In this document: in pieces, positions 1,328-22,173 of the stretch
Layout of the letters: each line of letters opens with the position of its first letter
Position numbering within the stretch: position 1 is the stretch's first letter
Assembly (NCBI GenBank): GCA_964019335.1
Contig: OZ025648.1
Span: 744,001-808,000 of the forward strand
Length of the DNA stretch: 64,000 nt
From: Diplonema japonicum
Taxonomy: Eukaryota; Protista; Euglenozoa: Diplonemea
Reading direction: 5' to 3'
Translations under genes and position numbers: made by a program
The notes under the pieces: generated by a model
Database searches by the model: none
The model's input: only the letters and a program-made list of their open reading frames with translations
What the model was told of the DNA's origin: nothing

Positions 1328-4300
1328 ATGATGCTTGTATTGGCGGTTGCCGCTCTCAGCGGCACCTGCAAGCTCTCTGCTTGGGAACAAGCAATTCTCG
1401 ATAAACACAATGAATGGAGGGGCAACACACAGCCCGCTGCCAAAGACATGTTCAAAGTGCGTTGGGACACAACCATTGCCACCAACATGGCCAACCACAT
1501 CAACAGATGCGACACAAACTGGCCTCACTCCGACCAGGACACTTACAGGAAGAACGTTGGTGGGTACGAGTTCCTTGGTGAGAATCTTGCATACTGTGCA
1601 GGCACGGCTTGCGAGGCGTTGATGAGTGATGGCATTCCCGGGTACCTTGGGCAGAGTTGGTGGGATGAGAAGGATGACTACAACTGGTACACTGACAAAT
1701 CCAATGGTGGTGTGACTTCGCATTACACACAAATGTCTTCTTCCAACATCTACGCCATTGGGTGTGCTGCTGTGAAGTGTCCATCTCCCGGTCCTTATGG
1801 TTGGAGTGGTGAATGGTGGGAGTTTGGGTGCCAGTATGGTGAAAGGGGACAAGGTTACTGGATTGGCACAAAGCCATTTGAGCAAGGGTCTGGTGGTCTC
1901 ATTGAACCTGCCGATTCTGTCTACACCAAGAACCCTGATCTGTGCAAGGATGCAGGCAGCACACCACCAACACCTCCCACACCCCCGACACCTCCCACTC
2001 CACCAACACCTCCTACACCGCCCGCTGGTGGATCTAGCTGCCCGCTCTCTGCTTGGGAACAGGCAATTCTTGACAAGCACAACGAGTGGAGGAGTGACAC
2101 ACAGCCCCCTGCAAAGGACATGTTCAAAGTGCGTTGGGACACAACCATTGCCACCAACATGGCCAACCACATCAACAGATGCGACACAAACTGGCCTCAC
2201 TCCGACCAGGACACTTACAGGAAGAACGTTGGTGGGTACGAGTTCCTTGGTGAGAATCTTGCATACTGTGCAGGCACGGCTTGCGAGGCGTTGATGAGTG
2301 ATGGCATTCCCGGGTACCTTGGGCAGAGTTGGTGGGATGAGAAGGATGACTACAACTGGGCCACTGATAAATCCAATGGTGGTGTGACTTCGCATTACAC
2401 ACAGATGTCTTCTTCCAACATCTACGCCATTGGGTGTGCTGCTGTGAAGTGTCCATCTCCCGGTCCTTATGGTTGGAGTGGTGAATGGTGGGAGTTTGGG
2501 TGCCAGTATGGTGAGAGGGGACAAGGTTACTGGATTGGCACAAAGCCATTTGAGCAAGGGTCTGGTGGTCTCATTGAACCTGCTGATTCTGTCTACACCA
2601 AGAACCCTGCTCTGTGCAAAGATGCAGGCAGCACGCCCCCGACTCCTCCCACACCACCAACACCTCCCACACCCCCGACTCCTCCCTCTCCACCAACACC
2701 TCCTACACCGCCCGCTGGTGGATCTAGCTGCCCGCTCTCTGCTTGGGAACAGGCAATTCTCGACAAGCACAACGAGTGGAGGGGTGACACACAGCCCCCT
2801 GCAAAGGACATGTTCAAAGTGCGTTGGGACACAACCATTGCCACCAACATGGCCAACCACATCAACAGATGCGACACAAACTGGCCTCACTCCGACCAGG
2901 ACACTTACAGGAAGAACGTTGGTGGGTACGAGTTCCTTGGTGAGAATCTTGCATACTGTGCAGGCACGGCTTGCGAGGCGTTGATGAGTGATGGCATTCC
3001 CGGGTACCTTGGGCAGAGTTGGTGGGATGAGAAGGATGACTACAACTGGGCCACTGATAAATCCAATGGTGGTGTGACTTCGCATTACACACAGATGTCT
3101 TCTTCCAACATCTACGCCATTGGGTGTGCTGCTGTGAAGTGTCCATCTCCCGGTCCTTATGGTTGGAGTGGTGAATGGTGGGAGTTTGGGTGCCAGTATG
3201 GTGAGAGGGGACAAGGTTACTGGATTGGCACAAAGCCATTTGAGCAAGGGTCTGGTGGTCTCATTGAACCTGCTGATTCTGTCTACACCAAGAACCCTGC
3301 TCTGTGCAAAGATGCAGGCAGCACGCCCCCGACTCCTCCCACACCACCAACTCCACCCACCCCCCCAACACCCCCGACACCTCCCACTCCACCAACACCT
3401 CCTACTCCACCAACACCTCCTACACCGCCCGCTGGTGGATCTAGCTGCCCGCTCTCTGCTTGGGAACAGGCAATTCTCGACAAGCACAACGAGTGGAGGA
3501 GTGACACACAGCCCCCTGCAAAGGACATGTTCAAAGTGCGTTGGGACACAACCATTGCCACCAACATGGCCAACCACATCAACAGATGCGACACAAACTG
3601 GCCTCACTCCGACCAGGACACTTACAGGAAGAACGTTGGTGGGTACGAGTTCCTTGGTGAGAATCTTGCATACTGTGCAGGCACGGCTTGCGAGGCGTTG
3701 ATGAGTGATGGCATTCCCGGGTACCTTGGGCAGAGTTGGTGGGATGAGAAGGATGACTACAACTGGGCCACTGATAAATCCAATGGTGGTGTGACTTCGC
3801 ATTACACACAAATGTCTTCTTCCAACATCTACGCCATTGGGTGTGCTGCCGTGAAGTGTCCATCTCCCGGTCCTTATGGTTGGAGTGGTGAATGGTGGGA
3901 GTTTGGGTGCCAGTATGGTGAGAGGGGACAAGGTTACTGGATTGGCACAAAGCCATTTGAGCAAGGGTCTGGTGGTCTCATTGAACCTGCTGATTCTGTC
4001 TACACCAAGAACCCTGCTCTGTGCAAAGATGCAGGCAGCACGCCCCCGACTCCTCCCACACCACCAACACCTCCCACACCCCCGACACCTCCCACTCCAC
4101 CAACACCACCAACACCTCCTACTCCACCAACACCTCCTACTCCACCAACTCCTCCCACGCCACCGACACCGCCTACCCCTCCTACTCCTGCAACACCAAA
4201 ACCAACGACGACCTCTGACGTGGATGAGTGTACAGCTGATGCTTGCGGTGCCGACCAAACGTGCACGGACCCTGACAAGAGAGTGACAGGCGACTACATC

Positions 4301-5275
4301 TGCCAATGCAAAAAGGCACCCAAGATCACTACCACAGGCGCCAAGGCCAGCTGCGTGATCGATGAATGCGCCGCCGCACCCTGTGGTTCCGAGCAGGACT
4401 GCAACGACCCCAACACAGCTGCTGACTCGCTTCTCGACTACATGTGTTCGTGCCCCAACGACGCCGCCACGAAGAACAAGGGCAGCCAGGTGCCGAAGTG
4501 CGTGGTCGACGAGTGCGACAAGACGCCATGCGGGACCCAAGCCTGCAAGGACAAGGACACGAAACCGAGTTCCATGAACGACTTCACGTGCACGTGCGCC
4601 AATGGGAAGGCGAACCACGGCGGGGTTGCGGTGTGCGAGACGGGCACTGTCGATGAGTGCACCCTGAGCAACCCGTGCCCTACAGGACAGACGTGTGTGG
4701 ACCCCGCACAAACCGCACTCAGCATGAAGGACTACGTGTGCAGCTGCAAGGTGGGCGCTGGCAGTGCGGTAGGCATGTCTGCGAAGTGCAGCATCGACGA
4801 GTGCGACGCCTCACCATGCGGGCCCGGCCAGACATGCAAGGATGCCAACATGGACATGGCTGGCGACTATGCTTGTTTCTGCGCAGGTGGCGGGGAAGGG
4901 TCCACAGGCAAGCCGCAGACCTGTGGCTATGACGAATGCAAAATGAAGGCCGACCCCTGCGAAGGGCAGGAGTGCAACGACCCCGTGCAAGAGCTCGAGT
5001 CGCTGTCAGATTTTAAGTGCAAGTGTGGTGATGTAGAAACACAGGGCGGCCCTGCGAAGTGCAAGGATGACTCCAGCACACCCTGGTGGCCCATCTTGCT
5101 GGGTATCCTCCTCCCGCTGTTGCTTTCTGCAGGCCTCGCAGCCGCCTTTATAATGAAGAAGAAGAAGCGTGTCTCGATGAATAACTTTATGGAAGAGGCG
5201 GTTAACACTGATTCGATGACCCCGTCCCGTGGCAGTGGCAGTGGGAACCAGGCGTATGAAACGACTACCATTTGA
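1328..5275 (+). CDS. Type I membrane protein: signal peptide, 4 CAP (SCP/PR-1) domains with TPP linkers, 6 EGF-like repeats, TM helix, short tail
   Basis: Hydrophobic N-terminus MMLVLAVAALS. CAP motifs HNEWR, GENLA, HYTQM, IGCA occur four times. Six DEC..PC..Q.C.DP..D[YF].C.C repeats. TM WWPILLGILLPLLLSAGLAAAFI followed by KKKKR. Confidence 0.92.
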   Translation: MMLVLAVAALSGTCKLSAWEQAILDKHNEWRGNTQPAAKDMFKVRWDTTIATNMANHINRCDTNWPHSDQDTYRKNVGGYEFLGENLAYCAGTACEALMSDGIPGYLGQSWWDEKDDYNWYTDKSNGGVTSHYTQMSSSNIYAIGCAAVKCPSPGPYGWSGEWWEFGCQYGERGQGYWIGTKPFEQGSGGLIEPADSVYTKNPDLCKDAGSTPPTPPTPPTPPTPPTPPTPPAGGSSCPLSAWEQAILDKHNEWRSDTQPPAKDMFKVRWDTTIATNMANHINRCDTNWPHSDQDTYRKNVGGYEFLGENLAYCAGTACEALMSDGIPGYLGQSWWDEKDDYNWATDKSNGGVTSHYTQMSSSNIYAIGCAAVKCPSPGPYGWSGEWWEFGCQYGERGQGYWIGTKPFEQGSGGLIEPADSVYTKNPALCKDAGSTPPTPPTPPTPPTPPTPPSPPTPPTPPAGGSSCPLSAWEQAILDKHNEWRGDTQPPAKDMFKVRWDTTIATNMANHINRCDTNWPHSDQDTYRKNVGGYEFLGENLAYCAGTACEALMSDGIPGYLGQSWWDEKDDYNWATDKSNGGVTSHYTQMSSSNIYAIGCAAVKCPSPGPYGWSGEWWEFGCQYGERGQGYWIGTKPFEQGSGGLIEPADSVYTKNPALCKDAGSTPPTPPTPPTPPTPPTPPTPPTPPTPPTPPTPPTPPAGGSSCPLSAWEQAILDKHNEWRSDTQPPAKDMFKVRWDTTIATNMANHINRCDTNWPHSDQDTYRKNVGGYEFLGENLAYCAGTACEALMSDGIPGYLGQSWWDEKDDYNWATDKSNGGVTSHYTQMSSSNIYAIGCAAVKCPSPGPYGWSGEWWEFGCQYGERGQGYWIGTKPFEQGSGGLIEPADSVYTKNPALCKDAGSTPPTPPTPPTPPTPPTPPTPPTPPTPPTPPTPPTPPTPPTPPTPPTPPTPATPKPTTTSDVDECTADACGADQTCTDPDKRVTGDYICQCKKAPKITTTGAKASCVIDECAAAPCGSEQDCNDPNTAADSLLDYMCSCPNDAATKNKGSQVPKCVVDECDKTPCGTQACKDKDTKPSSMNDFTCTCANGKANHGGVAVCETGTVDECTLSNPCPTGQTCVDPAQTALSMKDYVCSCKVGAGSAVGMSAKCSIDECDASPCGPGQTCKDANMDMAGDYACFCAGGGEGSTGKPQTCGYDECKMKADPCEGQECNDPVQELESLSDFKCKCGDVETQGGPAKCKDDSSTPWWPILLGILLPLLLSAGLAAAFIMKKKKRVSMNNFMEEAVNTDSMTPSRGSGSGNQAYETTTI
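1373..4192 (+). repeat. Four near-identical intragenic CAP+linker repeats (periods 672, 690, 717 bp)
   Basis: Units start at ~1373, 2045, 2735 and 3452. They differ by a few substitutions and by the number of 9-bp Thr-Pro-Pro units. Confidence 0.95.
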
Positions 5276-5461
5276 ATTTCCCATATTTCTTCCTTTCCTT
5301 TCCCCCTTCCCCTCTCTCTCTAATTCTAGGCAATCAGGAGCCTGCTCTTACAGGGAAGCTGGAAAAAAAAAAAAGAAACGAAAAAAAAAAAGATAAAAAA
5401 AAATTTTTTTTTTACCGCCACCCCTCTCCCCATCCTCTATTTCCAAAGTAAACCTTCGCTT

Positions 5462-5526
<65 letters not shown>

Positions 5527-5768
5527 CTTTCAATTGGATTCTCCTTTTTTTTTTGCAGATGCTTGTCTTAAGAAGATTGAGCCGTGCTTTTTTTTTTTTT
5601 TTTTTTTTTCTTTTTTTTTGGAGAAGAGAATTTGAAAAAAGAAGAAAAAAAAGAGGAAAGAAATGGGAAAATAAACGAGTTAGGTGGAAATGAGGCATCT
5701 CTCGGGTTTTGGTATCTGAGGGAAAAAAAAAAAACAGAAAACAGAAAAAAGAAGAGAGAAAAGGGCAA

Positions 5769-5799
<31 letters not shown>

Positions 5800-7081
5800 G
5801 GTTTCTCTCCCCCTCCCTTTCTTTTTCTGTCGTAGGCGTAATGTATCTCCCTTCCTGAGCATATGAATTCCTGATCCATCCCTTCCCCTTTCCCTTCCCC
5901 CGATCCCTGAATTTTATCGAAAACAGAAATGTGGACTCATTGTCTAATATACAGGTCCCCTTAATCCAGCAGTAGTTTAAGCAGATTAACAGTTTCTAAT
6001 ATATCCCTGACCCATTCTCCAAGTCCCCGTTCAAAAAAGTATTTATTTGTACTTTTTCAATATCTTTTCTGAAGAGGATAGCAATTTAAAAAAAAAAAGA
6101 ATTTCTGTTTTTTTTTTTTTTTTCAATTCATGGCAAGAAGACATACAGATTTCAAAGATTACAAAACTCTCGCGTTCTTACACAACTAAAACAAGAACAC
6201 CCCTCCCCCCCCCCCCCCCCCACCTTAAAGAGAAGGAAACAATAGGAAATGAGAGTTTTTTTTTTTCATTGTTTGTTTGATTTTTTTTTTTTAGTTATTT
6301 ATTTGTTTCAAAGTTAAAATTGTTGTCGCAAAAAAAAAAAAAAAAATGTTGTTATTTATATTTTTACTTTCTACCTTTACCCCCCTTTTTTTTTCGTCCT
6401 TCTCTGCATTAAATTTCGCGAGAGGTGGTGAAAGGTGGTGGATGGAATACAAAAAAGAAGAAAAAAAAACATTTTGAAGTGCCAAGGTGCTTTATTCTAA
6501 GCGCAACAAATACTTAGCACTACTTTTTTTTTCCTTCTTTTTTTGCTCAAGAAAAAAAATATCACCACTTCTCTTTTTAAATGCCTCTTTTTTTTTTCGA
6601 CCAGCCGCATCATGCATCCACTTCCCCCCCCCCCTTTTTTTTCCGAAACAAACCCGATTGATCTGCAAGTTTAAAAATGTGTGGTTTTTTTTTTTCTTTT
6701 CTTAAAATGTGGAATTTCGTATTATCTTTGTTTCATGGTGTGATTTACAGGACAGTCAGTGTGCGTTTTTTTTTTCTTTTTTTTTTCTTTAATAGAAGAG
6801 GGTGCTTCTTTGAACCAGTGTCAATAATTAAAGGTGCGGTTTCTCATACTTTTTATTTTCTTTTTTTTATTTTCTTCTCCCCCCCCCCTTTTTTTCCCCA
6901 GCTGCTAACAGTGCTTGAAATGCAATTCTTGCATTTAAAAAAGGGCTTTCCCCCCCTCCTTTTTAGGCGTCCTGCCACATACCGCAGGTACCCTTAAATG
7001 TCTCTTTTTTCTTTTTTTTTTTTTTTTTTTTTTTTTCCTACTCCTCTCTTTGCCTTTTTATTTTCTTTACCAACAATTCTA

Positions 7082-7260
7082 AAGCTGCAGTTTCTGTTAT
7101 TGGTTGCTCTCACAAGCCGCTCAAGGCGGTGAGTGCGAGAGACTACTGCTCAGCTGCACAGCAGACAGTAGCGCTGTTACAAGGATAGCACTTCTAGCGG
7201 CACGCTGCAAGGAGTGGCTCATCAAAACAGCCGAGTAGACCGGCAGCTTCAGGGCTGCAG
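7082..7260 (+). ncRNA. Candidate structured RNA element (multi-branch, 5-6 hairpins), family unknown
   Basis: Compositionally balanced island among homopolymers, with abutting stems. Mismatches read as G-U pairs on the + strand. A closing stem pairs 7101-7109 with 7233-7242. Confidence 0.45.
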
Positions 7261-7791
7261 GTTCTCTTCAAAGGCATCCTTTTTTTTTTCTTTCCCTTTC
7301 TTCTTCCTGCCCACCCTTTTTTTTTTCTCCCCGCCCCCCTCCCTCTTTTTTTTCTCTCTTCGTTCCTTTTATTTCAATTTTTGTGAGTTCTCCAAGCTGT
7401 CCTGCCCTGAGCCTGTGGTATATCCTTTGCCTTACCGTGGGCCGGAATTAAAAAAAAAAAAAGAGAAAAAAAAAAGAAGAAAAACAACAAATAATAAAAA
7501 AAAAAATGATAAATTTCCGTGCGGGACGGGTTCTCACCGAGAAAAAAGGAAGAAGAACAAAAAAAGAAGAGGGAAGAAAAAAAGAAGAAAAAAAAGGAAA
7601 AAAAAACCCGAGGGAGCAAACTGTTCTATTTAAAAAGAGAAGGGGGGGAAAAAAAAGTCAAAAAAAAATCCATTGTATTTTTTTTTTTCGTTTGCTAACT
7701 CCCACAAAAAAAATTTTCTTTTCTTTTTTTTTTCTTTCCCTACCCAAAAAAAAAAAAAAAAAAGGAGGGAAAACACCCACAAAAAAAAAAA

Positions 7792-8595
7792 ATGTCGAAC
7801 CAACCAGTTAGGAGCACCACAGCAAGCGGCAGCGGCAGTGCCGTGTACGAAAGCGAAAGGGCGGTGGAAGAGTACCTCCAGTTTCACTACGGTGGTGAAA
7901 AATGCATGCCTTACTCTTTCGGGCCCGCGGGAGCGTTGGATTTCGCGCAGAGATGCGGGAAAATCTGCAACAAGTTCGCCCGTGACGACCGCAAAAGAGT
8001 GGCCTACGACATCGGGTGTGCTGTAGGAGCAACCTCCTTCGAGCTCAGCAAAGAGTTCGAGACCGTTATTGGGGTAGATTTCAGCCATGCGTTCATCGCA
8101 GCTGCAAACACGATGAAGGAAAAGAAGGAAATGCCGTACAAATCCACCGAAATCGCAGACATCAGAACCCCGCACACTGCCGTTCTACCCCCCGACACAA
8201 AGCCGGAAAAGGCTTCTTTTCGTCAAGGGGACGCATGTGATCTAGGTGACATTGGTGAAATAGATTGCATGGTTGCTGCCAATCTTCTCTGCAGGCTCCC
8301 CAAACCCATTGCATTCCTCCATAAAGCTATTGAATGCATCGCCCCTGGAGGCATTCTGGTACTTGTTTCACCGTTTTCCTGGTTATCTGAGTACACGGCA
8401 AAGGAAAACTGGATCGGGGGCTACGTGGATGAAAACGGCAATGCTGTTGAGTCTGCTGCGGAATGCTCCAAAATCCTCTCTCCCCACTTCGAACTTGTAC
8501 ACAGGCAGGACGAGCCGTTCCTCATTAGAGAGCACGCGAGAAAATTCCAATATGGGGTGTCTGACTGCACTGTGTGGAGGAAGAAGGAAGCGTGA
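7792..8595 (+). CDS. SAM-dependent methyltransferase, stand-alone OvoA C-terminal-like (putative mercaptohistidine N-methyltransferase)
   Basis: YES..EYLQFHYG, DIGCAVG..SFEL, GVDFS, FRQGDAC, ANLLCRL, SPFSW..YT..NWIGG and PFLIREHARKFQ match the ovothiol methyltransferase domain. Confidence 0.82.
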   Translation: MSNQPVRSTTASGSGSAVYESERAVEEYLQFHYGGEKCMPYSFGPAGALDFAQRCGKICNKFARDDRKRVAYDIGCAVGATSFELSKEFETVIGVDFSHAFIAAANTMKEKKEMPYKSTEIADIRTPHTAVLPPDTKPEKASFRQGDACDLGDIGEIDCMVAANLLCRLPKPIAFLHKAIECIAPGGILVLVSPFSWLSEYTAKENWIGGYVDENGNAVESAAECSKILSPHFELVHRQDEPFLIREHARKFQYGVSDCTVWRKKEA

Positions 8596-8992
8596 TTTTT
8601 TTTTTTTTTTTTTTTTGTGTATACCCCCTCGGTTTTTTTTTTTTTTTCCTCGAAACTCATAAGGGCTATCCTCACCCCCATATGCCTTTTCATATTTCGG
8701 AAGAATAAGGAGGGGAAAGAGTGTTTTTTTTTTTGTTTTTTGTATGGATGTTGGTGATAGGGTGGAAAGAAAGAGGTCGTGGGGGGGTCTGGATAAAAAA
8801 AAATTTTTTTTTTGCTAGCTTTTTTTTTTTTTTTTTTTCCCCACCGACTTCTCAGATATTTAAAAAAAAAAATTCACCCTCACCCACACGTATTACTCTC
8901 GTTTTTCTTTTCTTTTTTCTTTTTTCTTTTTTTTTTTTGACATTTCTCCCTCTTTCGTTGGGATACCTCCCTCATGGTCTTTTTTTTAGTCT

Positions 8993-9034
<42 letters not shown>

Positions 9035-9416
9035 TCCGAAGTATTTTTCAAAAATAAAAATAAGAAGAGAACACACGGGTAAACGTAAAACAAAAAAAAG
9101 GGGTGGGTTGGACAAAAAGGAAAGGAAAAAAAAAGAACAAAAAAAAAAAGAGCGGGTACAAAACAAAACAAAAAAAGAAATAGAACAAAAAAATTAAAAT
9201 AAATGAGCCGAGTTTTTATTTTATTTCATTTGTTCGTTTTCTATTTCAAAGAAGAGAACCAACTGGCTGTACTCTTTCCTTCCCCCTCTTTTTTTTTTTT
9301 TTCTCTTTTTTCTTTCCCAAGTCTCTGAAAGCCCCCTTTTTTTTTCCTTTATTCAGTACACACTGTACCCCGCAAGGCAAAAATCATAATTCACCAGGGG
9401 AAAAAAAGAAAAAAAA

Positions 9417-12400
9417 ATGACAGCCATGGCCGACTGTGCAGTGAACATAGGTACTATGCGAAAAAGCGAACTTGAAAAAATATTGGAAAATGCAAAACGG
9501 CATAACGTAGACAGCGTACTGCTGATAGGTGGGAACGCGCAAAAATCCAAAGCCTGCTTGGAGCTCGCGCGAGACGAAACTCTTGTCAAAATAGGTGTGA
9601 AAATGGTGTGCTGTGCGGGTGTGCATCCAACCGAGTCGCTCTCCTGGAACGACAGCACCGAACAGACTCTGATATCTTGTCTGTCCGACCCGCTCTGTGT
9701 GGCAGTGGGTGAATGCGGCCTTTCATACGTAAAAGATGCCCCACCTCAGGAGGTTCAAAAATGGGTGTTTTCCCGACAAGTCTCGCTTGCTCAAAAACTT
9801 TCCCTCCCCATCTTTGCACACCAGCGTGGCCACTCCCAACACGATCTCCTCTCAACCCTCACCCCGGAGATGTACCCTTCAACGGTCATTCATTGTTTTA
9901 CAGGTTCCCTCGAGACCCTGCGCACCTACCTAACCTCAGGGTGCTGCGTGTCGTTCTCAGGATGGCTCGCACTTAAAGACAAAGGCTTCCCTTTAAGACA
10001 TTCCCTTTCAAAGATCCCCATTGCTTCGTACTTGAAGCAGATATTATTAGAGACAGACACACCGTTTTTAAAGCCCGACCTGTATGATACGGATGTGAAG
10101 TGTTCGGAGAAAAAAGAAAGCAGCGAACCCGCAGATGTTGTGCTGGTGGCGAAGTGTTTCAGCGAGGTGTCGGGGCTTTCGGAACAAGAGGTTCGGAAGG
10201 CGACGCACGACAACTTCTGGAGGATGTTCGGGAGGAAGGGTGGCCACGGCCATGGTACTGTGGTCAGGGTGCAGCATGGATCGGGTAAGAAAAAGAAGAA
10301 CTATTCGTCGGACGCGCCGAAGTTCATTGTGCCGCACACGCTCGCACGTCTTGCGAAGCAAATGCGCGGTGTGGGCATCGACACCATCATGATGAACACC
10401 AACGGCGTCGCGAAGCTGCTTGAAGCAGCAACCACTGAGAACCGCATCATCCTTTTACGGCATGCGAAAAGCATCTCAACAGAACGCCTCGACACCACAA
10501 AGTGGCTGAAGCTGAGCTCCGACCACACCCGCGAACAAGTCGCGCAAGTCCTCTCCACCTACAACTTGTACCCCAACGAGTCGGATCTCCAAAAACGATG
10601 CGTCGTCTGCAACGCCTGCAAATGGCATCGTGAAACGCACAGCAACGCCCGCAGCGAGATAGGCGACATCGCTGCCAACCACAAGATCTTCCGTTGCGGG
10701 GGGTGCAGGAAGCTGTACTGGGAGGGGGGTATTTTCCGAAAGGCGCAGAAGCACTTCAGAGCCCTCTACATCGACAAGAAGGAAGGCACTGAGGAGAACG
10801 AGGAGAGCCCCGTCTCGCCACCTCCCTGCAAGGAGCGCTGCAAGAAACAAGGTGCTGCGAAGAACTTAAGCAAGAAGGAAGTACACCTGCTGTTCATCCA
10901 CAACAGGTACGGTGTCGTACTGTTCGAAGCTCTGGGGAAATCAACGGCAGGTGCTAAATGGGAAATAGCCAAGACCCACGTGCTAGAACTAGGGGACAGA
11001 CCCTACTCAAGGAAGCCGGAGGTGGACCCTGCATCGGAGGTGAACTGGGACGAAGCAGTGATGCAAGCAGTGAAGCGGCTTGCCCGAGTGTATCTTGGCC
11101 TAGAGGTGAAGCGGAGCCAGGTGCGACCGGCAATCGACTCCGAGACAGGTGAGGAGATCGTGAAGGGGCGCAGGACGTACTTTGTAGTCCAGCTCTTCGA
11201 CAGTGACTCCGCTCCAAAGGGCACCGATGGGGCGCGGCCGCCCCTGTCCGGCGAGGATTTCTGGCTGCGCAGCTCATGCCCCTTCACTTTCGTCGCCAAC
11301 CTCAACGATGCCTCAGGCATGGTCAAGCGCAGCATGCCGGGCAGTGCAGGCAAGGTCGATGTCGTTGGCTCTGCTGTTCTCAAGTGGATGTCTCTAAGGA
11401 TCTTCACCAAGAAGATAGCTAACATACCCCGCACTGCGGCCCCCGTTGTCCTCGATGCCAGCTCCGAGCTGCTCAACTTCACCGCCGCCACCGCACACGG
11501 CGAGTACATCACATCCATAGCACAAGTTACAACCAAGCTGCGTTCCAAAGGAGTCGCACACCCTGACCACACGAGGGCACTATGGGACTGGCGCCCGAGG
11601 CATCTGGGAGGGTCCTACGTGCCGTCCGTCGAGAAGTACCTTGAAAAAGACGACCCCCCACCCGACCCAAGTGCGGGCATGCTGACCCCGATGAGACTGT
11701 GGCGGTGGTTCAACACAAACATCACACCACATGAAGGGGCGATACTAGCAAAGGTGAAGGCGATCCAGAAGCAGGTTCAGAGCGTAGTGGGGGAGGTGGT
11801 GGTGTTTGGCAGCACCGCGACAGGAGTAGCGGACAAGGACAGCTACGATGTGGACATGCAAGTGGTAGGTGCGTGGGATGAAGAAAACGAGAAGCAGCAC
11901 CTCATGGAACTGGCGGACAAGCTTCAAGCATCTGACATATTCGAAGTGGGGGAAATAACACCTGTACTCTCTGCGAGGGTCCCGGTGCTGAAAACCTTTG
12001 TGGGAACTGTTCCTGTGGACTTCACACTACGTTGCGAAGGGTGCTTCAACTCAAAGCTGTTCCGTGCTTACTTCGAACAGAAGCCATTTGTCCGCCCTTT
12101 GGCGTATGTTGTAAAGCGTTGGGGTGCGTGGTCCGGTGTCAAGTCACGAACGGTAGGCTGGTTCACTTCATACAGCTTACAACTGCTGCTGATCTACTCC
12201 CTCCTCCACAGTGGGTCCGTCGTCTTCGAGCCGTTGGAGAAAACAGTGCCTGTGATCGATAGTTACTCTGACGTTACGGGTGTTACCGACGCGCAGGTTG
12301 GGACGGCACTTGGTTACTTCTTCTGGTACTATGGGTGGAAGCATGACTGGGACAATGACGTGGTTTGTATTATGTCGCCAGTGCAAAAAGGTGTTCCGCT

Positions 12401-12624
12401 GACGAAGGCTGAGCTAGGGTGGGAGGATGCCCCTGCTGCAGTGCGCGACCCTTTTGAACAAGACCTCAACCTTACAAGGCGAAGCAAGGATAAGATATTG
12501 ACTGATGTATGTTTGAGGACGGGGAAAAAAAAAAAAAAAATCACAGATTTCACGGAGGTTTCGATTGTCGTATTCTGCGCTTGAGTCAGGTGGCCTGCAG
12601 TCCCTGTTTAGCGACACTGGGTAG
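9417..12624 (+). CDS. TatD nuclease + Mut7-C-like domain + possible degenerate Nudix fold + Cid1/TUTase nucleotidyltransferase fusion (exons 9417-12506, 12547-12624)
   Basis: TatD: GVHP, GECGL, HQR, IHCFTG, LETDTP. Mut7-C: LARLAKQMRGVGIDT, RCVVCN, CGGCRKLYWEG. NTase: FGSTATG..DVD, ARVPVLK, VDF, VKRWG, TSYSL, DPFEQDLNL. Intron 12507-12546 (GTATGT..CAG). Confidence 0.88.
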
Positions 12625-12879
12625 ATATCCAGTGGTGTCTTGGGTCGTTTTTTATTTATTTATATTCTCCCCTTCTCTCCTCCATTTTTTTTAATCTCCC
12701 TTCGTTCTTCTCTTTCCTTTCAAAGGATGCAGGGAGGGTGTCGAGAGAGAGAAACAAACCCGGGAGAATGAAAAAAAAAAAAAGAAGAAGAAAGAAGGAT
12801 TTTAAAAAAAAAAAAAGAAAGAAACACCTGCGTGTTTCTAGACTTCTTGTTCACTCGTTCTCTCACATTGTATTTAAAC

Positions 12880-12914
<35 letters not shown>

Positions 12915-13103
12915 CCTCGCCAGTTCTTTCTCCGCAGTATCGTGTGGAAACATTTTTTTTTTTTCCCTCTTTTTTTTTTTGATAAAAAAGAACACGCCTC
13001 CACTACACAAAACCACGTTATTCCCCCCCCCCCTATTTTCTTCTTTTTAAAAAAAAAAAAGGGAGGGGTGTTGGGTTAACCCCACCAATCTAAAAAAAGA
13101 AAA

Positions 13104-13885
13104 ATGTTGTTGATGGGGAAAACCAATGTGTTCCGGCAAGTAGGCGATCTGCTGCATCTGATGTCTGTGCTCATTGTGTTATATAAAATGTTGAGGTTGA
13201 AGTCTTGCGTGGGTCTCTCGTTGAAGAGCCAATTCGCATATGCTATTGTGTTCACAGCAAGATACCTGCCTACAATCTTCCACACACAATCGTTGTACCT
13301 TCTGGCCATGAAGCTGTTCTTTTTATCGACCAGCTGGTTCATAGTCTATTTAATGAGGTTCAAAATCCCATACAAAGCGTCTTACGACCCGAAGCTCGAC
13401 AGTTTCAAGATGCGATATTTGTTCATGGCCGCTGCCTTCATGGCTCTTATTTTTCATTATGACAATCCTCACCTTTTTATCGAGGTATGGGAGAATAAAA
13501 AATAAAAAAAAGAATTCTCAAAAAAAAATTTTTTTTTCAGATGCTGTGGACGTTCAGCGAATACCTCGAGGCGGTTGCCATCATGCCACAACTCCTCCTT
13601 CTCAACACGATAATCGAGCAAGGCAGGCCTTGGGAACTACTTACTTCGCATTACGTGTTCTGTCTTGGCCTCTACAGGTTTTTCTACGTTATCAATTGGA
13701 TCTATCGATACATTTACGAAAGTATGTAGTGCAATAGGGGGGGGGGGGGGGTGAAAGAAAACCACTCAGATCGCTGGAACTGGGTTGATACCACGTCCGG
13801 GATAATCCAAACCCTGCTTTATGCCGACTTCTTCTACACCTATATCAACGGCCTCGCTAAGTTGCGAGTAAGTTTGCCCAAATGA
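13104..13885 (+). CDS. ERD2: ER lumen protein-retaining (KDEL/HDEL) receptor (exons 13104-13484, 13541-13721, 13770-13885)
   Basis: [48 protein letters not shown] and [13 protein letters not shown]. Two GT-AG introns restore the full frame. Confidence 0.95.
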
Positions 13886-14135
13886 TTTTTTTTTTCTCTT
13901 TTTTTTTTCTCCATCCCCCTTCGCCACCCCCCTTTTTTTTTAAAAAAAAAAAAGTGTACAATATTTTAAGAATTAAAAAAAAAAAAAGAAGAAGAAGAAG
14001 AAGAAGGAACGAGAAAAAACTTTTTTAAAAAAAGGGGATAATGGAAAAAAAGAATAAAAAGAGGGGAATGAAAAAAACAAAAGAAAATTGCTCGTGTGCA
14101 CTCATGAGATGAGATTGTTTGCCAAGTTAGCCTTC

Positions 14136-14168
<33 letters not shown>

Positions 14169-14272
14169 TTTGGCAATCTGCTTTTTCTTTTTCCCCTTCA
14201 CTTTTTGCATTTTTTTTTCTTTCTCGTTCTCACTACCCTACAGTTCACTTTCTCAGCAACGACTGAGCAGAC

Positions 14273-17200
14273 ATGACGAGCTTCACACGGGTCGGCACTG
14301 TGCTTGCAGTGGCCAGCATGGTGGGGTGCCAGTGCACCGGGATGGGTGGCCCATGGTACGACTCCGCAACAGAGGACGTGATGACGGTGAGCGAAGCGGG
14401 GTGCGTGCTGAGCAGCAAGTACGGAAAGGTTCGCGTGACGGGGAAGAAGGTGTCCCCCGAGGGAGGACTGCTTGCCGCTATCGGTGTGGAGGGCCAGTGG
14501 GACTCCTTCGGCTCGCGCATCAAGTGGAGCAACGGGGTGACGTGGACGAAGAAGGTCGGCACCGAGGAGCTGCTGACGGAGCTGCGGGACCTGAAGGACA
14601 AGCACTCCGACGCGATGGGCAGGATCGACGCTCTTGAGACGACCGTGACGCGTCTCTCGTCGTGCTGCAACTCCACTTCACCTGGGACGCCCACTTCCCC
14701 TGCTGATGTCGATGCCCTGAAGCAGTCCCTTGACGACCTGAGCGAGCGGGTGGACCTCCTGAACAAGTCGCGCACCGGCCCCGCAGGCCGCGACGGCTAC
14801 TGCATGACCACCCCGAACACCACCGAGGTCTACGTCCCGAAGCAGGTCTTCGTCCACAACAGATACACCCCGACCTCGACCTGCACAGGGGAGACCGTCA
14901 ACGATGACGGCTGCCGCTGGTCCTTCCACATGGAGAAGGTGCTGAACATCAGGGTGGGCGACACACTTGTCTTCTGGCGCCACGACTCGAAGGTGCACGA
15001 CCTGTGGGAGTTCCAGACAGAGGCCGCCTTCGACGGATGCGACTTCTCAAAGGCGACCCTGCGTGTCGGCTCCACCGAGTTCGCCAGCTTTGAAGACACC
15101 AGAAACTACACCATGACCTTCACTGCTGCGGGAGACCACTTCTTCGGGGCGAAGTTCCCCGACTCAATGGTCACCAACGAGGTGAAGAAGAGGGAGCTGT
15201 GCTGGGATCCTACAGACCCCCCCACCGGGGCTGTCGCGGGGCAGATGCTCGGGTTTGGTGAGGGCTCGAAGATCACGATCCGTGTCCTGGACCCCACGAA
15301 GGAGGAGATGGTGACTTGCCCGCTTTACGACCCCTCGAAGTACGGTGTGAAGGACGGGAAGGCCGCCGACTCGGAGTCTGTGGAGAAGCTGAAGGGGACG
15401 GTGGCCGCCTTGGGGCGCCAGCTCATCTTGGCGGAGGCGAGGACGGCGGAGCGGGTGCGCGAGCAAGGGCAGTCCGGGCTGACGCTGACACGGTCTGTGG
15501 AGCAAGGCTCCGACGCCTACTACGAGCCGAGCTACGGGTCGATGGGGGCGGCGAACATCCACAACCACGCGAACACACACCACACGATAGGCCTCGGGGA
15601 GTTCGGGGCTGTCCTGAACGGTGTGCAGTTCACGACACGCCACAACGACTACTCCTTGGTGCAGCCCGACCCGACGCTGAGCCCCGACGACTACAAGAGC
15701 GAGTGGCCCCCGAAGGCCTCTGCGATCGAAGGCCCGGAGGTTCCTCCGGCGGTGCTGGGCGCTGGGACGGTCCCCGAACAGGTGGCCGAGATGAGGGAGT
15801 GGTTCAAGGCCTTCCACACGCAGAACAAGACGCACCGGAACTACCCCGACTACTTCAAACCTGTGTTGTGCTACCTCGAGGGGACGTGGGCGGAGCCAGC
15901 GGAGGAGGTGGCGGAACCCTTCAACTCCGAGAGGCACCACATCGACGCCGACTCGTGGATGGACCTGCACGAGAAGCTGAACTTCATGTTCAACAATGGA
16001 CAGAAGCACATCCTGGAGAACCTTGCCTTCCTCCCGACCGCGATCCGCGGGATCCGCGAGGGGACCGTGTTCGAGCCACGCGAGGCACAATGGTTCTACA
16101 GGATCTCCTGCAGGCCGGTGAAGAACGATATCCCGACAGAGCGGTTCAGGGTGAAGAACGACCTGCACGTGCAGATGAAGCAGTACAAACCTGCGACGAG
16201 GAAGGAGCTCGGCTCGACCCCTCACGCCTTGTTTGAGATGAACCCGAAGCTGCAGGCGGACTGGGCACCCGGGGCGAAGTGGAAAAGAGGCGCCACTACA
16301 ATGGAGTACGTGGACGAACTGATGTCGGACATCCCTGGGTTTGACGGACCACAGGCGTCACTCATGACGGACGAGTCGTTCGGGGTGCTGTGCGAGACGC
16401 TGAACGGGACGACAACACTCGACACGGCGCGGTACACGCGACACTTCTCCCTCGGGCACATCGACGCAATGGGGCGGACCGCGAAGAGGCGTGGCTTCAA
16501 CGACTACCTCTTCGCGGCGCAGACGACGCACCCGAAGGTGTCGCCCTTGACGACCTGTGGGAACCCCGACTTCGACGGGAGGAACACGGTGGCCCCGGAC
16601 CCGGTGGACACAGCGAGGCAGGCAGAGTGCCAGAAGATCACGACGAGGGAGGGGTGCACGACGACCTGGGAGGCGGCGGAGGTGAAGGCGGCGGAAGGGG
16701 CGAAGTGCTCATGGGCCGGGGCGAAGGTCGGCTGCATCTACAAGAAGTGCTGGACGCAGCGCTGGTCGTACGCGATCCCCCTCGAGGTCGTGTACCTCAC
16801 CCCACTCCTGAAGTGGAACCCTTACAACATCGAGTACCACGAGAAGAAGACCCCCGGCTACGACGCGGTGAAGAAGATGACAACGAACACAGGGCTCTCT
16901 CCAGGGACACCCTTCAAGGGAAGCAGGCAGGACCTGTTCTTCAGAACCCCTGCAGAGCTGTTCAAGGATCAACTGCACCCGGACCCCGCCGACTCGTCGG
17001 GGGGCGAGACCTTCGTGGAGGACAAGAACGGGGTGGTGAGGAAGACGCGGGCCTCGGGGACCTGGGTGTTCACCCCGGAGATCGAAGGGGTGGGGGCCGT
17101 GCGGACGAGGTACCCCGTGTTCCCTGTCCACGAGCATGGGAACACGGTCTGGAAGGAGGCAAAGGCTGTGGCGGACCTGGTGATGATGAAGGACACGAAC

Positions 17201-17563
17201 GCGGACGTGCGGGAGGTGATCAACGAGGCAAGAGGGGGCGGGTTCGGGGTGGAGCTGAGGCTGGGTGGCGGGGGCCACGACCACTACATCAAGATCGAGC
17301 CGGAGGAGCTGGAGCAGGCCCGGGCCGGGACCAAGACAGAGTTCCTGAAGATCAGCGACACACGCAACGCCCACGCCCACACCGTGATGGTGGTATACGA
17401 CCGCACTGCAAAGAAGTGGAACCTCAAGGCATGCAATCAGAACAACAACTTCGTCCCTTGCCCAGCCAGCGTCATCGCCTCCGGTGGCTGCGCCTCGTCC
17501 CCCGTCAACTGCTGCGCAGGGAAGTGCCCCGACGGACACTTCTACCTCGCACCGCCATTCTGA
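14273..17563 (+). CDS. Secreted His/Cys-rich multidomain protein with a phytocyanin-like domain, array copy 1 (1096 aa)
   Basis: Long intronless GC3-rich ORF. Signal-like N-terminus and coiled coil. Cupredoxin-like IRVGDTLVF..HDL..FDGCDF..FTAAGDHFF. His-rich core IHNHANTHH, RHNDY; C-terminal HDH/HAH/CPDGH. Confidence 0.88.
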   Translation: MTSFTRVGTVLAVASMVGCQCTGMGGPWYDSATEDVMTVSEAGCVLSSKYGKVRVTGKKVSPEGGLLAAIGVEGQWDSFGSRIKWSNGVTWTKKVGTEELLTELRDLKDKHSDAMGRIDALETTVTRLSSCCNSTSPGTPTSPADVDALKQSLDDLSERVDLLNKSRTGPAGRDGYCMTTPNTTEVYVPKQVFVHNRYTPTSTCTGETVNDDGCRWSFHMEKVLNIRVGDTLVFWRHDSKVHDLWEFQTEAAFDGCDFSKATLRVGSTEFASFEDTRNYTMTFTAAGDHFFGAKFPDSMVTNEVKKRELCWDPTDPPTGAVAGQMLGFGEGSKITIRVLDPTKEEMVTCPLYDPSKYGVKDGKAADSESVEKLKGTVAALGRQLILAEARTAERVREQGQSGLTLTRSVEQGSDAYYEPSYGSMGAANIHNHANTHHTIGLGEFGAVLNGVQFTTRHNDYSLVQPDPTLSPDDYKSEWPPKASAIEGPEVPPAVLGAGTVPEQVAEMREWFKAFHTQNKTHRNYPDYFKPVLCYLEGTWAEPAEEVAEPFNSERHHIDADSWMDLHEKLNFMFNNGQKHILENLAFLPTAIRGIREGTVFEPREAQWFYRISCRPVKNDIPTERFRVKNDLHVQMKQYKPATRKELGSTPHALFEMNPKLQADWAPGAKWKRGATTMEYVDELMSDIPGFDGPQASLMTDESFGVLCETLNGTTTLDTARYTRHFSLGHIDAMGRTAKRRGFNDYLFAAQTTHPKVSPLTTCGNPDFDGRNTVAPDPVDTARQAECQKITTREGCTTTWEAAEVKAAEGAKCSWAGAKVGCIYKKCWTQRWSYAIPLEVVYLTPLLKWNPYNIEYHEKKTPGYDAVKKMTTNTGLSPGTPFKGSRQDLFFRTPAELFKDQLHPDPADSSGGETFVEDKNGVVRKTRASGTWVFTPEIEGVGAVRTRYPVFPVHEHGNTVWKEAKAVADLVMMKDTNADVREVINEARGGGFGVELRLGGGGHDHYIKIEPEELEQARAGTKTEFLKISDTRNAHAHTVMVVYDRTAKKWNLKACNQNNNFVPCPASVIASGGCASSPVNCCAGKCPDGHFYLAPPF

Positions 17564-18819
17564 TAGAGGCCATAGTGATGAAGTGAAGGGGAAAAAAAAA
17601 AAGTAAAACGAATCATAAACCAATTCCTGTATTTTTTTTTCTTCCGATTATGTTTTTCTTTCCATTCGTTTTCTTCCCCCTCCAAGTTTCATTTGTTTTT
17701 GAACGGCTGTAGCTGTGATGTAGCATGAGCTTAAGGTTCGCTGTTCGTGTATCACCAACCCCAGTTTTTTTTTTGTTCTTGGATAATCAAGTAAGACTGG
17801 TTTGGGGTTCTATTGTTTAAGAAGAAGAAAAAAAAGAGAAACAAATGATGAATAAAGACAAAGGAGAGGAAAGGAGGCAGAAGAGAAGGGAAAAGAAAAC
17901 CAACAAAAAAAGAAGAAGAAAAAAGATAGCGTTGTAATTTTAATTTTACCCTCTAATATATCCACACAGAGCTCTTGGGTGGGCTTTGGGAATTTTTGGA
18001 TGTCAGTTGAAGATTTAGATTTTAGAATCCAGCCTTTTTAGGTGTGAATTTTGATTCTTATGATTAAAAAAAAGAACAAAGAACAAAGCAGGATATTCCA
18101 GAACACATGGTTTAAAAAAAGAAGAAGAAGAAAATGGGGGAAAACAAAGCAGCCATTGTGGATTGGTGTTGTGGGTTGCTGCTAACACTTCCCACCCTGT
18201 GACAATTTTATCTCCCCCCCTTTATTTTTGCGGCATTATCTTTGATGTCATAACTTTGCAAATATTCCTCTTTTTTTTTTAATATTTTTATTTTATTTAT
18301 TTTCTATTTATTCCCTCCCTCCTATCTCTGCTAAAAGAAGAAGAAAATGTAAAGAAAATAAAGAGAAAAACAAAAGGGATAACCTCTGCTGGATTTGCTT
18401 TTTTTTTTTCTTCTTTCTTTTTCCCTTTTTTTTAAATGCATGCTTGTACCCCCCCCCTTCATTCCGAGGCCTTGTGGTCAGAGATCGAGTGTAAAACAAA
18501 AACTGAAGGAAGGAAAAGGAAAAAAAATCTGAAGAGGGAAAACCCCCCCCCCCGAAAAAGAAGAAAGAAGCGTCGTGGTAACGCAAAAATCGTAAAATAA
18601 TTTCTGTTTTTTTGCTGTTATCCTCTCCTTCTTCCTCTTCTTCTTCTTCTCCTTCTTCATCCTTCCCTTACCTTTCTTTCTATTCCTCTTCTTTTATTTC
18701 AAGATAAACATGAAAAAAAAGGACTAAGAAAATACCAATAAAATGGCGTCATAAAACGCCACACTCGAGACCTCCTCCTTCGCTTCCCCTTCCCCTTCCC
18801 CACTTACTACCGTGTTGAG

Positions 18820-18847
18820 CATTATTTACCTTTTTCTTCCGTTTTAG
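18820..18847 (+). promoter_or_regulatory. Candidate trans-splice acceptor (pyrimidine tract + AG) upstream of array copy 2; recurs at +4610 and +9220
   Basis: ..tttacctttttcttccgttttAG lies 38 nt before the ATG. Similar pyrimidine-AG sites precede the genes at 9417, 32457 and 60066. Confidence 0.45.
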
Positions 18848-18885
18848 TTCAAAAAAAAGAATCAAAAAAAATCAGAAGACACACG

Positions 18886-21800: not shown

Positions 21801-22173
21801 GGACACGAACGCGGACGTGCGGGAGGTGATCAACGAGGCAAGAGGGGGCGGGTTCGGGGTGGAGCTGAGGCTGGGTGGCGGGGGCCACGACCACTACATC
21901 AAGATCGAGCCGGAGGAGCTGGAGCAGGCCCGGGCCGGGACCAAGACAGAGTTCCTGAAGATCAGCGACACACGCAACGCCCACGCCCACACCGTGATGG
22001 TGGTATACGACCGCACTGCAAAGAAGTGGAACCTCAAGGCATGCAATCAGAACAACAACTTCGTCCCTTGCCCAGCCAGCGTCATCGCCTCCGGTGGCTG
22101 CGCCTCGTCCCCCGTCAACTGCTGCGCAGGGAAGTGCCCCGACGGACACTTCTACCTCGCACCGCCATTCTGA
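18886..22173 (+). CDS. Same secreted protein, array copy 2 (1095 aa)
   Basis: Translation identical to copy 1 except the start (MSF vs MTSF). Confidence 0.88.
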   Translation: MSFTRVGTVLAVASMVGCQCTGMGGPWYDSATEDVMTVSEAGCVLSSKYGKVRVTGKKVSPEGGLLAAIGVEGQWDSFGSRIKWSNGVTWTKKVGTEELLTELRDLKDKHSDAMGRIDALETTVTRLSSCCNSTSPGTPTSPADVDALKQSLDDLSERVDLLNKSRTGPAGRDGYCMTTPNTTEVYVPKQVFVHNRYTPTSTCTGETVNDDGCRWSFHMEKVLNIRVGDTLVFWRHDSKVHDLWEFQTEAAFDGCDFSKATLRVGSTEFASFEDTRNYTMTFTAAGDHFFGAKFPDSMVTNEVKKRELCWDPTDPPTGAVAGQMLGFGEGSKITIRVLDPTKEEMVTCPLYDPSKYGVKDGKAADSESVEKLKGTVAALGRQLILAEARTAERVREQGQSGLTLTRSVEQGSDAYYEPSYGSMGAANIHNHANTHHTIGLGEFGAVLNGVQFTTRHNDYSLVQPDPTLSPDDYKSEWPPKASAIEGPEVPPAVLGAGTVPEQVAEMREWFKAFHTQNKTHRNYPDYFKPVLCYLEGTWAEPAEEVAEPFNSERHHIDADSWMDLHEKLNFMFNNGQKHILENLAFLPTAIRGIREGTVFEPREAQWFYRISCRPVKNDIPTERFRVKNDLHVQMKQYKPATRKELGSTPHALFEMNPKLQADWAPGAKWKRGATTMEYVDELMSDIPGFDGPQASLMTDESFGVLCETLNGTTTLDTARYTRHFSLGHIDAMGRTAKRRGFNDYLFAAQTTHPKVSPLTTCGNPDFDGRNTVAPDPVDTARQAECQKITTREGCTTTWEAAEVKAAEGAKCSWAGAKVGCIYKKCWTQRWSYAIPLEVVYLTPLLKWNPYNIEYHEKKTPGYDAVKKMTTNTGLSPGTPFKGSRQDLFFRTPAELFKDQLHPDPADSSGGETFVEDKNGVVRKTRASGTWVFTPEIEGVGAVRTRYPVFPVHEHGNTVWKEAKAVADLVMMKDTNADVREVINEARGGGFGVELRLGGGGHDHYIKIEPEELEQARAGTKTEFLKISDTRNAHAHTVMVVYDRTAKKWNLKACNQNNNFVPCPASVIASGGCASSPVNCCAGKCPDGHFYLAPPF

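Follow-up and report, generated by a model that had tools for sequence, protein, structure and literature searches.

Shortening of RNA 3′ ends and addition of uridines to them are opposing reactions, which known systems divide among subunits. RET1 is the terminal uridylyltransferase (TUTase) subunit within the trypanosome mitochondrial 3′ processome (MPsome). In this processome 3′ ends are trimmed by the DSS1 exonuclease (10.1101/350256), and uridylation is likewise coupled to 3′–5′ trimming or decay in Drosophila TRUMP (Tailor with Dis3L2), in TUT4/7 with DIS3L2 and in TUT1 with USB1 (PMC7988573; the published sources are cited here from excerpts). In MUT-7 and EXD3, the Mut7-C domain binds RNA and speeds its degradation by their exonuclease (PMC11347159), and TatD from Escherichia coli, the member of another nuclease family, takes nucleotides off the 3′ ends of single-stranded DNA and RNA (PMC4176340). 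Here we describe a gene of the diplonemid Diplonema japonicum, located on the forward strand at 9417..12506 and 12547..12624 of the window, the whole stretch of 64,000 nucleotides (nt) that was analysed, with a 40-nt GT–AG intron in between. Its single transcript encodes four domains, namely a TatD nuclease, a Mut7-C domain, a Nudix fold and a terminal nucleotidyltransferase; two active sites look intact and a third, that of the Nudix fold, is decayed. We regard the product as probably a non-mitochondrial, one-chain enzyme that would trim and uridylate RNA 3′ ends.

A single transcribed gene

The initial annotation had read a TatD–Mut7-C–Nudix-like–TUTase polypeptide from the DNA, and all the motifs it quoted were found in frame from 9417. 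Without splicing, the frame that opens at this ATG has 1055 open codons and stops at 12584, because it enters the intron. A search of protein collections returned a D. japonicum protein (EukProt P0002) identical over 98% of the length, the last 25 residues excepted. Translated separately, exon 1 (1030 residues) and exon 2 (25 residues and the stop at 12624) give exactly P0002, and position 12624, which had been proposed as the end of the gene, is therefore its true end. Furthermore, R1033, L1037, S1038 and G1045 of exon 2 are invariant in the eight family members described below. A frameshift at the run of 16 A was also considered and ruled out, as the run sits inside the intron.

In contigs from two samples of one study (X7 and X9), 9397-12506 is covered without a break, the intron is absent and no internal loose end occurs; contigs lose rare variants, and a rare internal leader site would escape notice. 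The concern that an internal spliced-leader site might split the open reading frame (ORF) is not borne out by these contigs. In both, position 9397 is preceded by nine non-genomic letters, which match the 3′ end of the euglenozoan spliced leaders tabulated in PMC3795323. This leader site lies 19 nt before the ATG and therefore fixes the N-terminus. Counts of pyrimidines in the 20 nt upstream of AG dinucleotides had no discriminating power, with at most 18 for internal AGs, 19-20 for four AGs at 9320-9375 and 13 for the acceptor in use. Among 14 runs, with no RNA label on record, X7, X9, X11 and X12 were taken as RNA-derived solely from intron skipping, and X1 is possibly the source of the window itself. 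Differences from the window are synonymous in 28 of 38 cases for X11 and in 7 of 7 for X12, for a chance expectation of 30%, the contigs of both being of low depth and part of the differences possibly errors. An Rfam scan of 5000-15000 found no family.

An assembly or annotation artefact joining neighbouring genes would have nothing more than the unusual architecture in its favour. It has next to no probability and is already refuted by the single open frame, the identical transcriptome protein, the leader-bearing contigs and the same domain order in eight divergent proteins. The fusion gene is confirmed as real and transcribed, and it is neither a chance ORF nor an assembly chimera.

Family and distribution

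A profile of residues 290-1030 and of the Flectonema counterpart, run against 1.84 billion cluster representatives, gave 3132 matches at E 0.001 or better, the top 150 of them being examined. Seven proteins among these 150 score 220-1473 bits, and the next one scores 112. Together with P0003 they amount to at least eight distinct proteins, and in every one of them TatD comes first, followed by Mut7-C, the middle domain and the transferase; the remaining proteins compared matched one of the five profiles for the domains at most. Four members are named, from D. japonicum, Flectonema neradi (two paralogues) and Artemidia motanka, all diplonemid, and four more are ENA records. Among the best 150 of the 3132 matches, this architecture is absent from the named proteins of kinetoplastids, euglenids and D. 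papillatum. The architecture is lineage-restricted, with a range that is a lower bound, close relatives being hidden in clusters. Length-windowed word-index searches found 2, 1 and 4 of the eight members, fewer than the HMMER library search, and a metagenome scan with the middle domain gave 367 pattern matches and no relative.

Members share 29-33% identity with the window protein. In three of them (P0019, P0020 and P0021) a CCCH finger (C-x9-C-x5-C-x3-H) separates Mut7-C from the Nudix fold; the window protein has no such finger. Monophyly of these three was considered and set aside: the Mut7-C domain groups them (86), the transferase does not.

The architecture is undescribed in the literature searched, subscription journals, bioRxiv supplements and InterPro architectures having been outside reach. 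The excerpt of PMC12699882 holds no description of the fusion, PMC9181182 does not contain the word TatD, and 'Mut7' is absent from the searched supplements of PMC12699882 (three files, one of them in part) and PMC10161547. Each domain and the trim-and-tail principle are known already; a previous characterisation of the architecture, which would have counted against the initial annotation, was not met with in these searches.

Two predicted catalytic domains

TatD, Mut7-C and the transferase are all recognized by Pfam hidden Markov models above curated cut-offs, the Nudix fold only by fold searches and the ESM Atlas, which upholds the proposed domain assignment. TatD_DNase matches residues 16-272 (E 3e-47; PF01026, 161.7 bits for a cut-off of 27), and this profile matches in all eight family members. 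The best NCBIfam model for this part is the E. coli-type TatD, with a score under the whole-protein cut-off. What defines class I TatD is (G/A)xN at the N-terminus instead of HxH (PMC10085689); here the motif reads A8-x-N10 and occurs in six of the eight members, the two remaining models lacking that stretch. The metal-site motifs are retained, as stated in the initial annotation, with E99, H135, H159 and D214 in all eight proteins and E212 in seven. These ligands correspond to E91, H127, H152, D203 and E201, respectively, of the E. coli enzyme, in which E91, E201 and D203 are needed for exonuclease activity (PMC4176340). The active-site residues are intact-looking, and a 3′–5′ exonuclease is predicted.

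TatD proteins are also apurinic/apyrimidinic (AP) endonucleases and DNA exonucleases (PMC10085689), which would suit a DNA-end enzyme whose TatD cuts AP sites or resects DNA ends and whose transferase extends DNA. We consider this quite improbable, as every accessory part points to RNA. On the strength of Mut7-C, the CCCH finger of three members and the Cid1-type transferase, with N878 at the position of RET1 N483, we take RNA to be the likely substrate.

In the transferase, Pfam recognizes MTPAP-like_central (residues 778-885), NTP_transf_2 (782-837) and PAP_assoc (962-1016; PF03828, 29.2 bits for a cut-off of 22.6). The Gly-Ser pair, the DxD motif and the third Asp had been described as intact, and they are so throughout the family: G798, S799, D811, D813 and D868 are kept in 8/8 members, as are R854, N878, Y919, D1011, E1014 and N1018. 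The best solved relatives are RET1 and TUT4, with GLD2 structures next. RET1 contacts uridine triphosphate (UTP) through N483, T522, Y524, D654 and E657 and has the triad D310, D312 and D473 (PMC5159558). These contacts align with N878, T917, Y919, D1011 and E1014, and the triad with D811, D813 and D868; T917 is found in the window protein and three others of the eight. In a FastTree analysis of 99 transferase domains (107 matches, eight dropped as partial or duplicate), the eight fusions are grouped (99) inside a branch of 54 rows (99) that holds RET1-like, TUT4-like and euglenid proteins, TUT4/7-like proteins falling apart from it. A quick IQ-TREE search on 30 chosen rows agrees, with a support of 99 in the Shimodaira–Hasegawa-like approximate likelihood ratio test (SH-aLRT). 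Both trees have midpoint roots only, and no donor is claimed. Altogether, the comparison suggests a RET1/TUT4-like transferase with a predicted preference for UTP, a call that is not confident because the Asp-x-x-Glu motif is not diagnostic for UTP.

The same architecture could indeed serve a transferase adding A or mixed tails, in the manner of TRAMP-like or Gld2-like trim-and-adenylate systems. GLD2 structures rank right behind RET1 and TUT4, the Glu of the recognition loop is not unique to TUTases, and the window protein has no Cid1-type His after the loop. Since the loop, N878, T917 and Y919 are nevertheless in register with RET1, and the tree places the domain with RET1/TUT4-like proteins, we judge A-tailing decidedly unlikely.

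Elsewhere in the window, an ORF of 830 residues (60066-62558, + strand) gives weak transferase matches below cut-off (PF22600, E 0.003; PF03828, E 0.06), has apparently degenerate catalytic motifs and is possibly an inactive Trf4/Cid1-like protein.

Origin of the Mut7-C domain

The Mut7-C domain (residues 301-445) is matched by PF01927 with E 2e-21, and by a profile comparison with the solved C-terminal domain of MUT-7 (8q66) at E 5e-4. It keeps its four zinc Cys in all eight family members. In a tree of 53 Mut7-C domains, the eight fusions form one group (SH-aLRT 90) that is sister (90) to 19 proteins. Among the 18 of these that were scanned, 16 have a DEDD exonuclease domain; three named ones of the 19 are alveolate (Vitrella, Chromera and Perkinsus), and that of Perkinsus is annotated 'Exonuclease mut-7'. 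The initial annotation had noted that the Cys are retained and acidic residues lost, and both observations stand. The loss is not special to the fusion, as Pro occupies the first acidic (Asp) site in seven of the eight fusions, 15 of the 19 sister proteins and none of 27 others. This Asp-to-Pro change, shared with a sister clade of DEDD+Mut7-C proteins, argues that the fusion owes its acid loss to an EXD3-like ancestry. Acidic residues of Mut7-C are known to differ between species (PMC5499597).

No match to the DEDD exonuclease domain (PF01612) was obtained in any of the eight fusion proteins, and TatD stands in that place. The analysis supports a descent of the fusion Mut7-C from EXD3/MUT-7-like proteins of the DEDD+Mut7-C type, and the position of the exonuclease was likely taken over by TatD; the earlier proposal that TatD replaces DEDD fits this descent. 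That proposal had named MUT-7, EXD3 and Nibbler as proteins in which Mut7-C follows a DEDD exonuclease, which holds for the first two and not for Nibbler, described in the excerpt of PMC11347159 as lacking Mut7-C. Mut7-C itself was considered as the nuclease and rejected.

In other Mut7-C proteins met in the searches (P0102, P0122 and P0147), the domain is accompanied by a La domain or a tRNA-editing domain, which are additional partners related to RNA ends.

The Nudix-fold domain

Between Mut7-C and the transferase, residues 483-664 have no Pfam or PDB sequence-profile match, and none to PF00293 even at E 10; sequence profiles miss this Nudix domain, and its detection comes only from fold searches and the ESM Atlas. 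An AlphaFold2 model of residues 483-727, made from eight sequences, has a mean predicted local distance difference test (pLDDT) score of 73.6. Only Nudix proteins are found among the Foldseek matches listed (probability 1.00, E 1e-5), led by RppH and ADP-ribose pyrophosphatase. Alignment with VIA-align against 48,161 chains gave Z 11.7 with a root-mean-square deviation (rmsd) of 2.9 Å over 116 residues, and the best 50 rows are all Nudix-fold chains, most of them by title; a few, among them AraR, NrtR and the C-terminal domain of MUTYH, are titled otherwise and have a Nudix fold. In the ESM Atlas, the P0019 counterpart has a feature score of 0.95 with 12 NUDIX proteins among 30 matches, the window's own segment only 0.83.

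The consensus of the Nudix box comprises Gly, Glu, Arg-Glu and two further Glu. R554, L555, V558 and Y559 stand in the window protein in place of Arg-Glu..Glu-Glu, as expected from the initial description of a dead Nudix box. A full box, with Arg-Glu and then both Glu in register, is found in none of the eight members, P0020 keeping the last two Glu only. An active Nudix hydrolase was rejected on this ground, and the decayed domain is predicted to be a binding module.

This fold also bears on another explanation, end healing, in which TatD would strip the damaged or blocked 3′ terminus of a broken RNA, the transferase would rebuild or mark it, and the Nudix fold would sense a nucleotide or the 5′ end. 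The top Foldseek matches include RppH bound to RNA, and E. coli TatD takes damaged nucleotides off DNA ends (PMC4176340). An independent link between TatD and RNA ends is given by the first search, in which eight of ten matches outside the family join TatD to an RNA 3′-phosphate cyclase (PF01137), seven of them from named Phytophthora. This search took only proteins of 580-1847 residues and was thereby biased towards fusions; in the broader structural alignment RppH is not at the top (Z 10.1, versus 11.7 for the best); and the protein has no ligase or kinase domain and lies among unrelated neighbours. End healing is, in our opinion, unlikely.

The cyclase fusions (P0004-P0011), found in oomycetes, are the nearest long relatives of the TatD part within that length range. 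They form a second, independent case of TatD fused to an RNA-end enzyme, and no description of them was found in the literature searched.

Proposed function

Our preferred reading, coupled trimming and uridylation, would proceed as follows. Single-stranded RNA may be held by Mut7-C together with the Nudix fold and, in the three members that have it, the CCCH finger. TatD would shorten this RNA at its 3′ end and, like the E. coli enzyme, probably stall close to a duplex. U would then be added to the 3′-OH by the transferase, and the U tail could either mark the RNA for more decay by this very protein or define its mature end. Such an enzyme is likely to have arisen from an EXD3/MUT-7-like gene through replacement of its DEDD exonuclease by TatD and gain of a euglenozoan TUTase.

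The catalytic residues of both enzymes are retained although members are only 29-33% identical, which speaks for this reading. Several points weigh against it. Activity, substrate and location are all predicted. The full-length AlphaFold2 model (two sequences) reached a pLDDT of 31 and was discarded, and any hand-over of one RNA end between the two active sites would be hypothetical. Human TATDN1/3 and the E. coli TatD paralogues have been studied mainly on DNA and have AP-endonuclease activity (PMC10085689), and P0018 has Gly at the E212 position and a truncated start. The CCCH finger, missing from the window protein, stays below the Pfam cut-off (E 0.015-0.11) in two of the members bearing it, and the Mut7-C tree is a short search over 154 columns with unstarred support. 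For the transferase, the Asp-x-x-Glu loop is also present in several proteins outside the TUTase group and mostly absent from five proteins within it; R872 and S918 are changed in P0003 and P0016, which miss one residue of the recognition loop. Residue 904, which matches the second lysine of RET1/TUT4, presumably a triphosphate-binding one, is not Lys in any of the eight members. Furthermore, no known mitochondrial or nuclear euglenozoan poly(A) polymerase was identified in the transferase trees, and the clade may contain A-adding relatives.

Within the trim-and-uridylate reading, small RNAs of the RNA interference (RNAi) pathway are a tentative first guess for the substrate, and the small-RNA surveillance offered in the initial annotation is likewise a guess. 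D. papillatum has homologues of Dicer, Argonaute, Piwi and RNA-dependent RNA polymerase (PMC10161547). A more specific and doubtful version is a one-chain small-RNA maturase, in which the dead Nudix fold would grip the RNA 5′ end, by likeness to RppH, Mut7-C would hold the body, TatD would trim to a measured length and the TUTase would cap the product. If true, no earlier TatD would have been devoted to RNA processing, no earlier single polypeptide would have combined ruler, trimmer and tailer, and the protein would define a small-RNA pathway specific to diplonemids.

The initial annotation had also offered U-appending. Diplonemid mitochondria require trimming and U addition at the ends of transcript modules (PMC12699882), the named members are all diplonemid and the transferase is RET1-like, so that an editing enzyme trimming module transcripts and appending U tracts might be envisaged. 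It is very improbable. The start is fixed by the leader site and the first TatD strand begins at residue 6, which leaves no room for a presequence; by a composition count, the first 35 residues of the eight members contain 3-9 acidic residues and 0-3 Arg. Moreover, the published candidates for the mitochondrial TUTase (DIPPA_04001 and DIPPA_34584, of 680 and 416 residues) are other proteins, and they and three listed mitochondrial TatD proteins are stand-alone in the excerpt of PMC12699882. Proposed as a non-mitochondrial enzyme, the fusion is a lineage-restricted candidate for a part in the little-studied small-RNA biology of diplonemids, abundant marine protists with an RNAi gene set.

Features of the locus and its neighbourhood

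Table 1. Elements of the fusion gene, in window coordinates
Feature	Position	Strand	Basis or remark
Trans-splice acceptor AG	9396..9397	+	Spliced leader joined here; contigs of X7, X9
5′ untranslated region	9398-9416	+	19 nt between leader acceptor and ATG
Coding exon 1, residues 1-1030	9417..12506	+	Equals P0002 1-1030; spanned by single contigs in X1, X5, X7, X9
TatD TIM-barrel nuclease, class I (A8-x-N10); H70, E99, H135, H159, E212, D214	9429..10232	+	Pfam PF01026, ligand alignment
Mut7-C with Cys4 zinc site (C395, C398, C427, C430); first acidic site is Pro306	10317..10766	+	PF01927
Nudix-fold domain, residues 483-664, predicted inactive	10863..11408	+	Model, Foldseek, VIA-align, box residues
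Helical connector, residues 684-724, invariant R720 and W723	11466..11588	+	Model helices, conservation; outside fold matches
Cid1/RET1-type terminal nucleotidyltransferase; G798-S799, D811, D813, D868, N878, Y919, D1011, E1014	11724..12506	+	Pfam; solved relatives
Cis intron, 40 nt, GT..AG, with 16-A run	12507..12546	+	Absent from X7, X9, X11, X12 contigs; present in X1, X3, X5
Coding exon 2, residues 1031-1055 and stop	12547..12624	+	Equals P0002 1031-1055; last transferase helix

The genes on either side of the fusion give no functional hint. Upstream (7792-8595, + strand) lies the gene of a methyltransferase that stands alone and corresponds to the C-terminal domain of OvoA (TIGR04345, 206 bits for a cut-off of 170), which suggests a split ovothiol pathway. 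Directly downstream (13104-13600, +) is a KDEL-receptor (ERD2) gene with an apparent short intron near 13490-13540. It is followed by four tandem ORFs of 1095-1096 residues (14273-31396, +) spaced by about 4.6 kb, the first of which is hydrophobic at its N-terminus and is matched by neither Pfam nor NCBIfam. Further away, a protein of 1315 residues (1328-5275, +) resembles a surface protein, with four CAP domains joined by linkers rich in Pro and Thr, repeats rich in cysteine and a hydrophobic stretch at the C-terminal side, and one of 1658 residues (41044-46020, +) combines an ADP-ribosyltransferase (ART) domain with ankyrin repeats amid other ankyrin ORFs.

Comparison with known systems

Like MUT-7 and EXD3 among the MUT-7/EXD3/Nibbler exoribonucleases, the fusion places a predicted exonuclease before a Mut7-C domain that has a Cys4 zinc site, and its Mut7-C groups with those of DEDD+Mut7-C proteins. 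It differs from MUT-7 and EXD3 in that the nuclease is a TatD TIM barrel and not a DEDD domain, nothing precedes TatD in the window protein, and a Nudix fold and a transferase are added. Lacking DEDD, it falls outside the MUT-7/EXD3 family, and it would offer a clear case of an unrelated nuclease fold replacing DEDD beside Mut7-C.

The fusion transferase stands on the same tree branch as the kinetoplastid TUTases RET1 and TUT4, and its catalytic triad and the residues for UTP recognition line up with those of RET1. In contrast to these enzymes and to the MPsome, the fusion has neither an inserted middle domain nor a C2H2 finger and shows no sign of mitochondrial targeting; it is one chain and not a complex, with TatD where the MPsome has the RNase II-like DSS1. 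TRUMP, TUT4/7–DIS3L2 and TUT1–USB1 consist of separate polypeptides with unrelated nuclease folds. Here a TUTase-type transferase and a predicted nuclease are joined by fusion, and the nuclease is TatD and not RNase II-like. The coupling of the two predicted reactions could be tested in this natural fusion by means of two point mutants in one protein.

Class I TatD proteins such as E. coli TatD and human TATDN1 have the same (G/A)xN motif and metal ligands. Their known members are stand-alone and mainly studied on DNA, whereas the fusion TatD is joined to RNA-handling domains, which would allow a direct test of a dedicated RNA role for an ancient family usually filed under DNA repair. Oomycete TatD–RNA 3′-phosphate cyclase fusions likewise pair TatD with an RNA 3′-end enzyme; their partner is different, and they have no Mut7-C, Nudix fold or transferase. 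Finally, the middle domain has the fold of Nudix hydrolases such as RppH, the ADP-ribose pyrophosphatases and trypanosome MERS1, and differs from them by a box decayed in all eight members. Non-catalytic Nudix folds that bind RNA exist, such as CFIm25.

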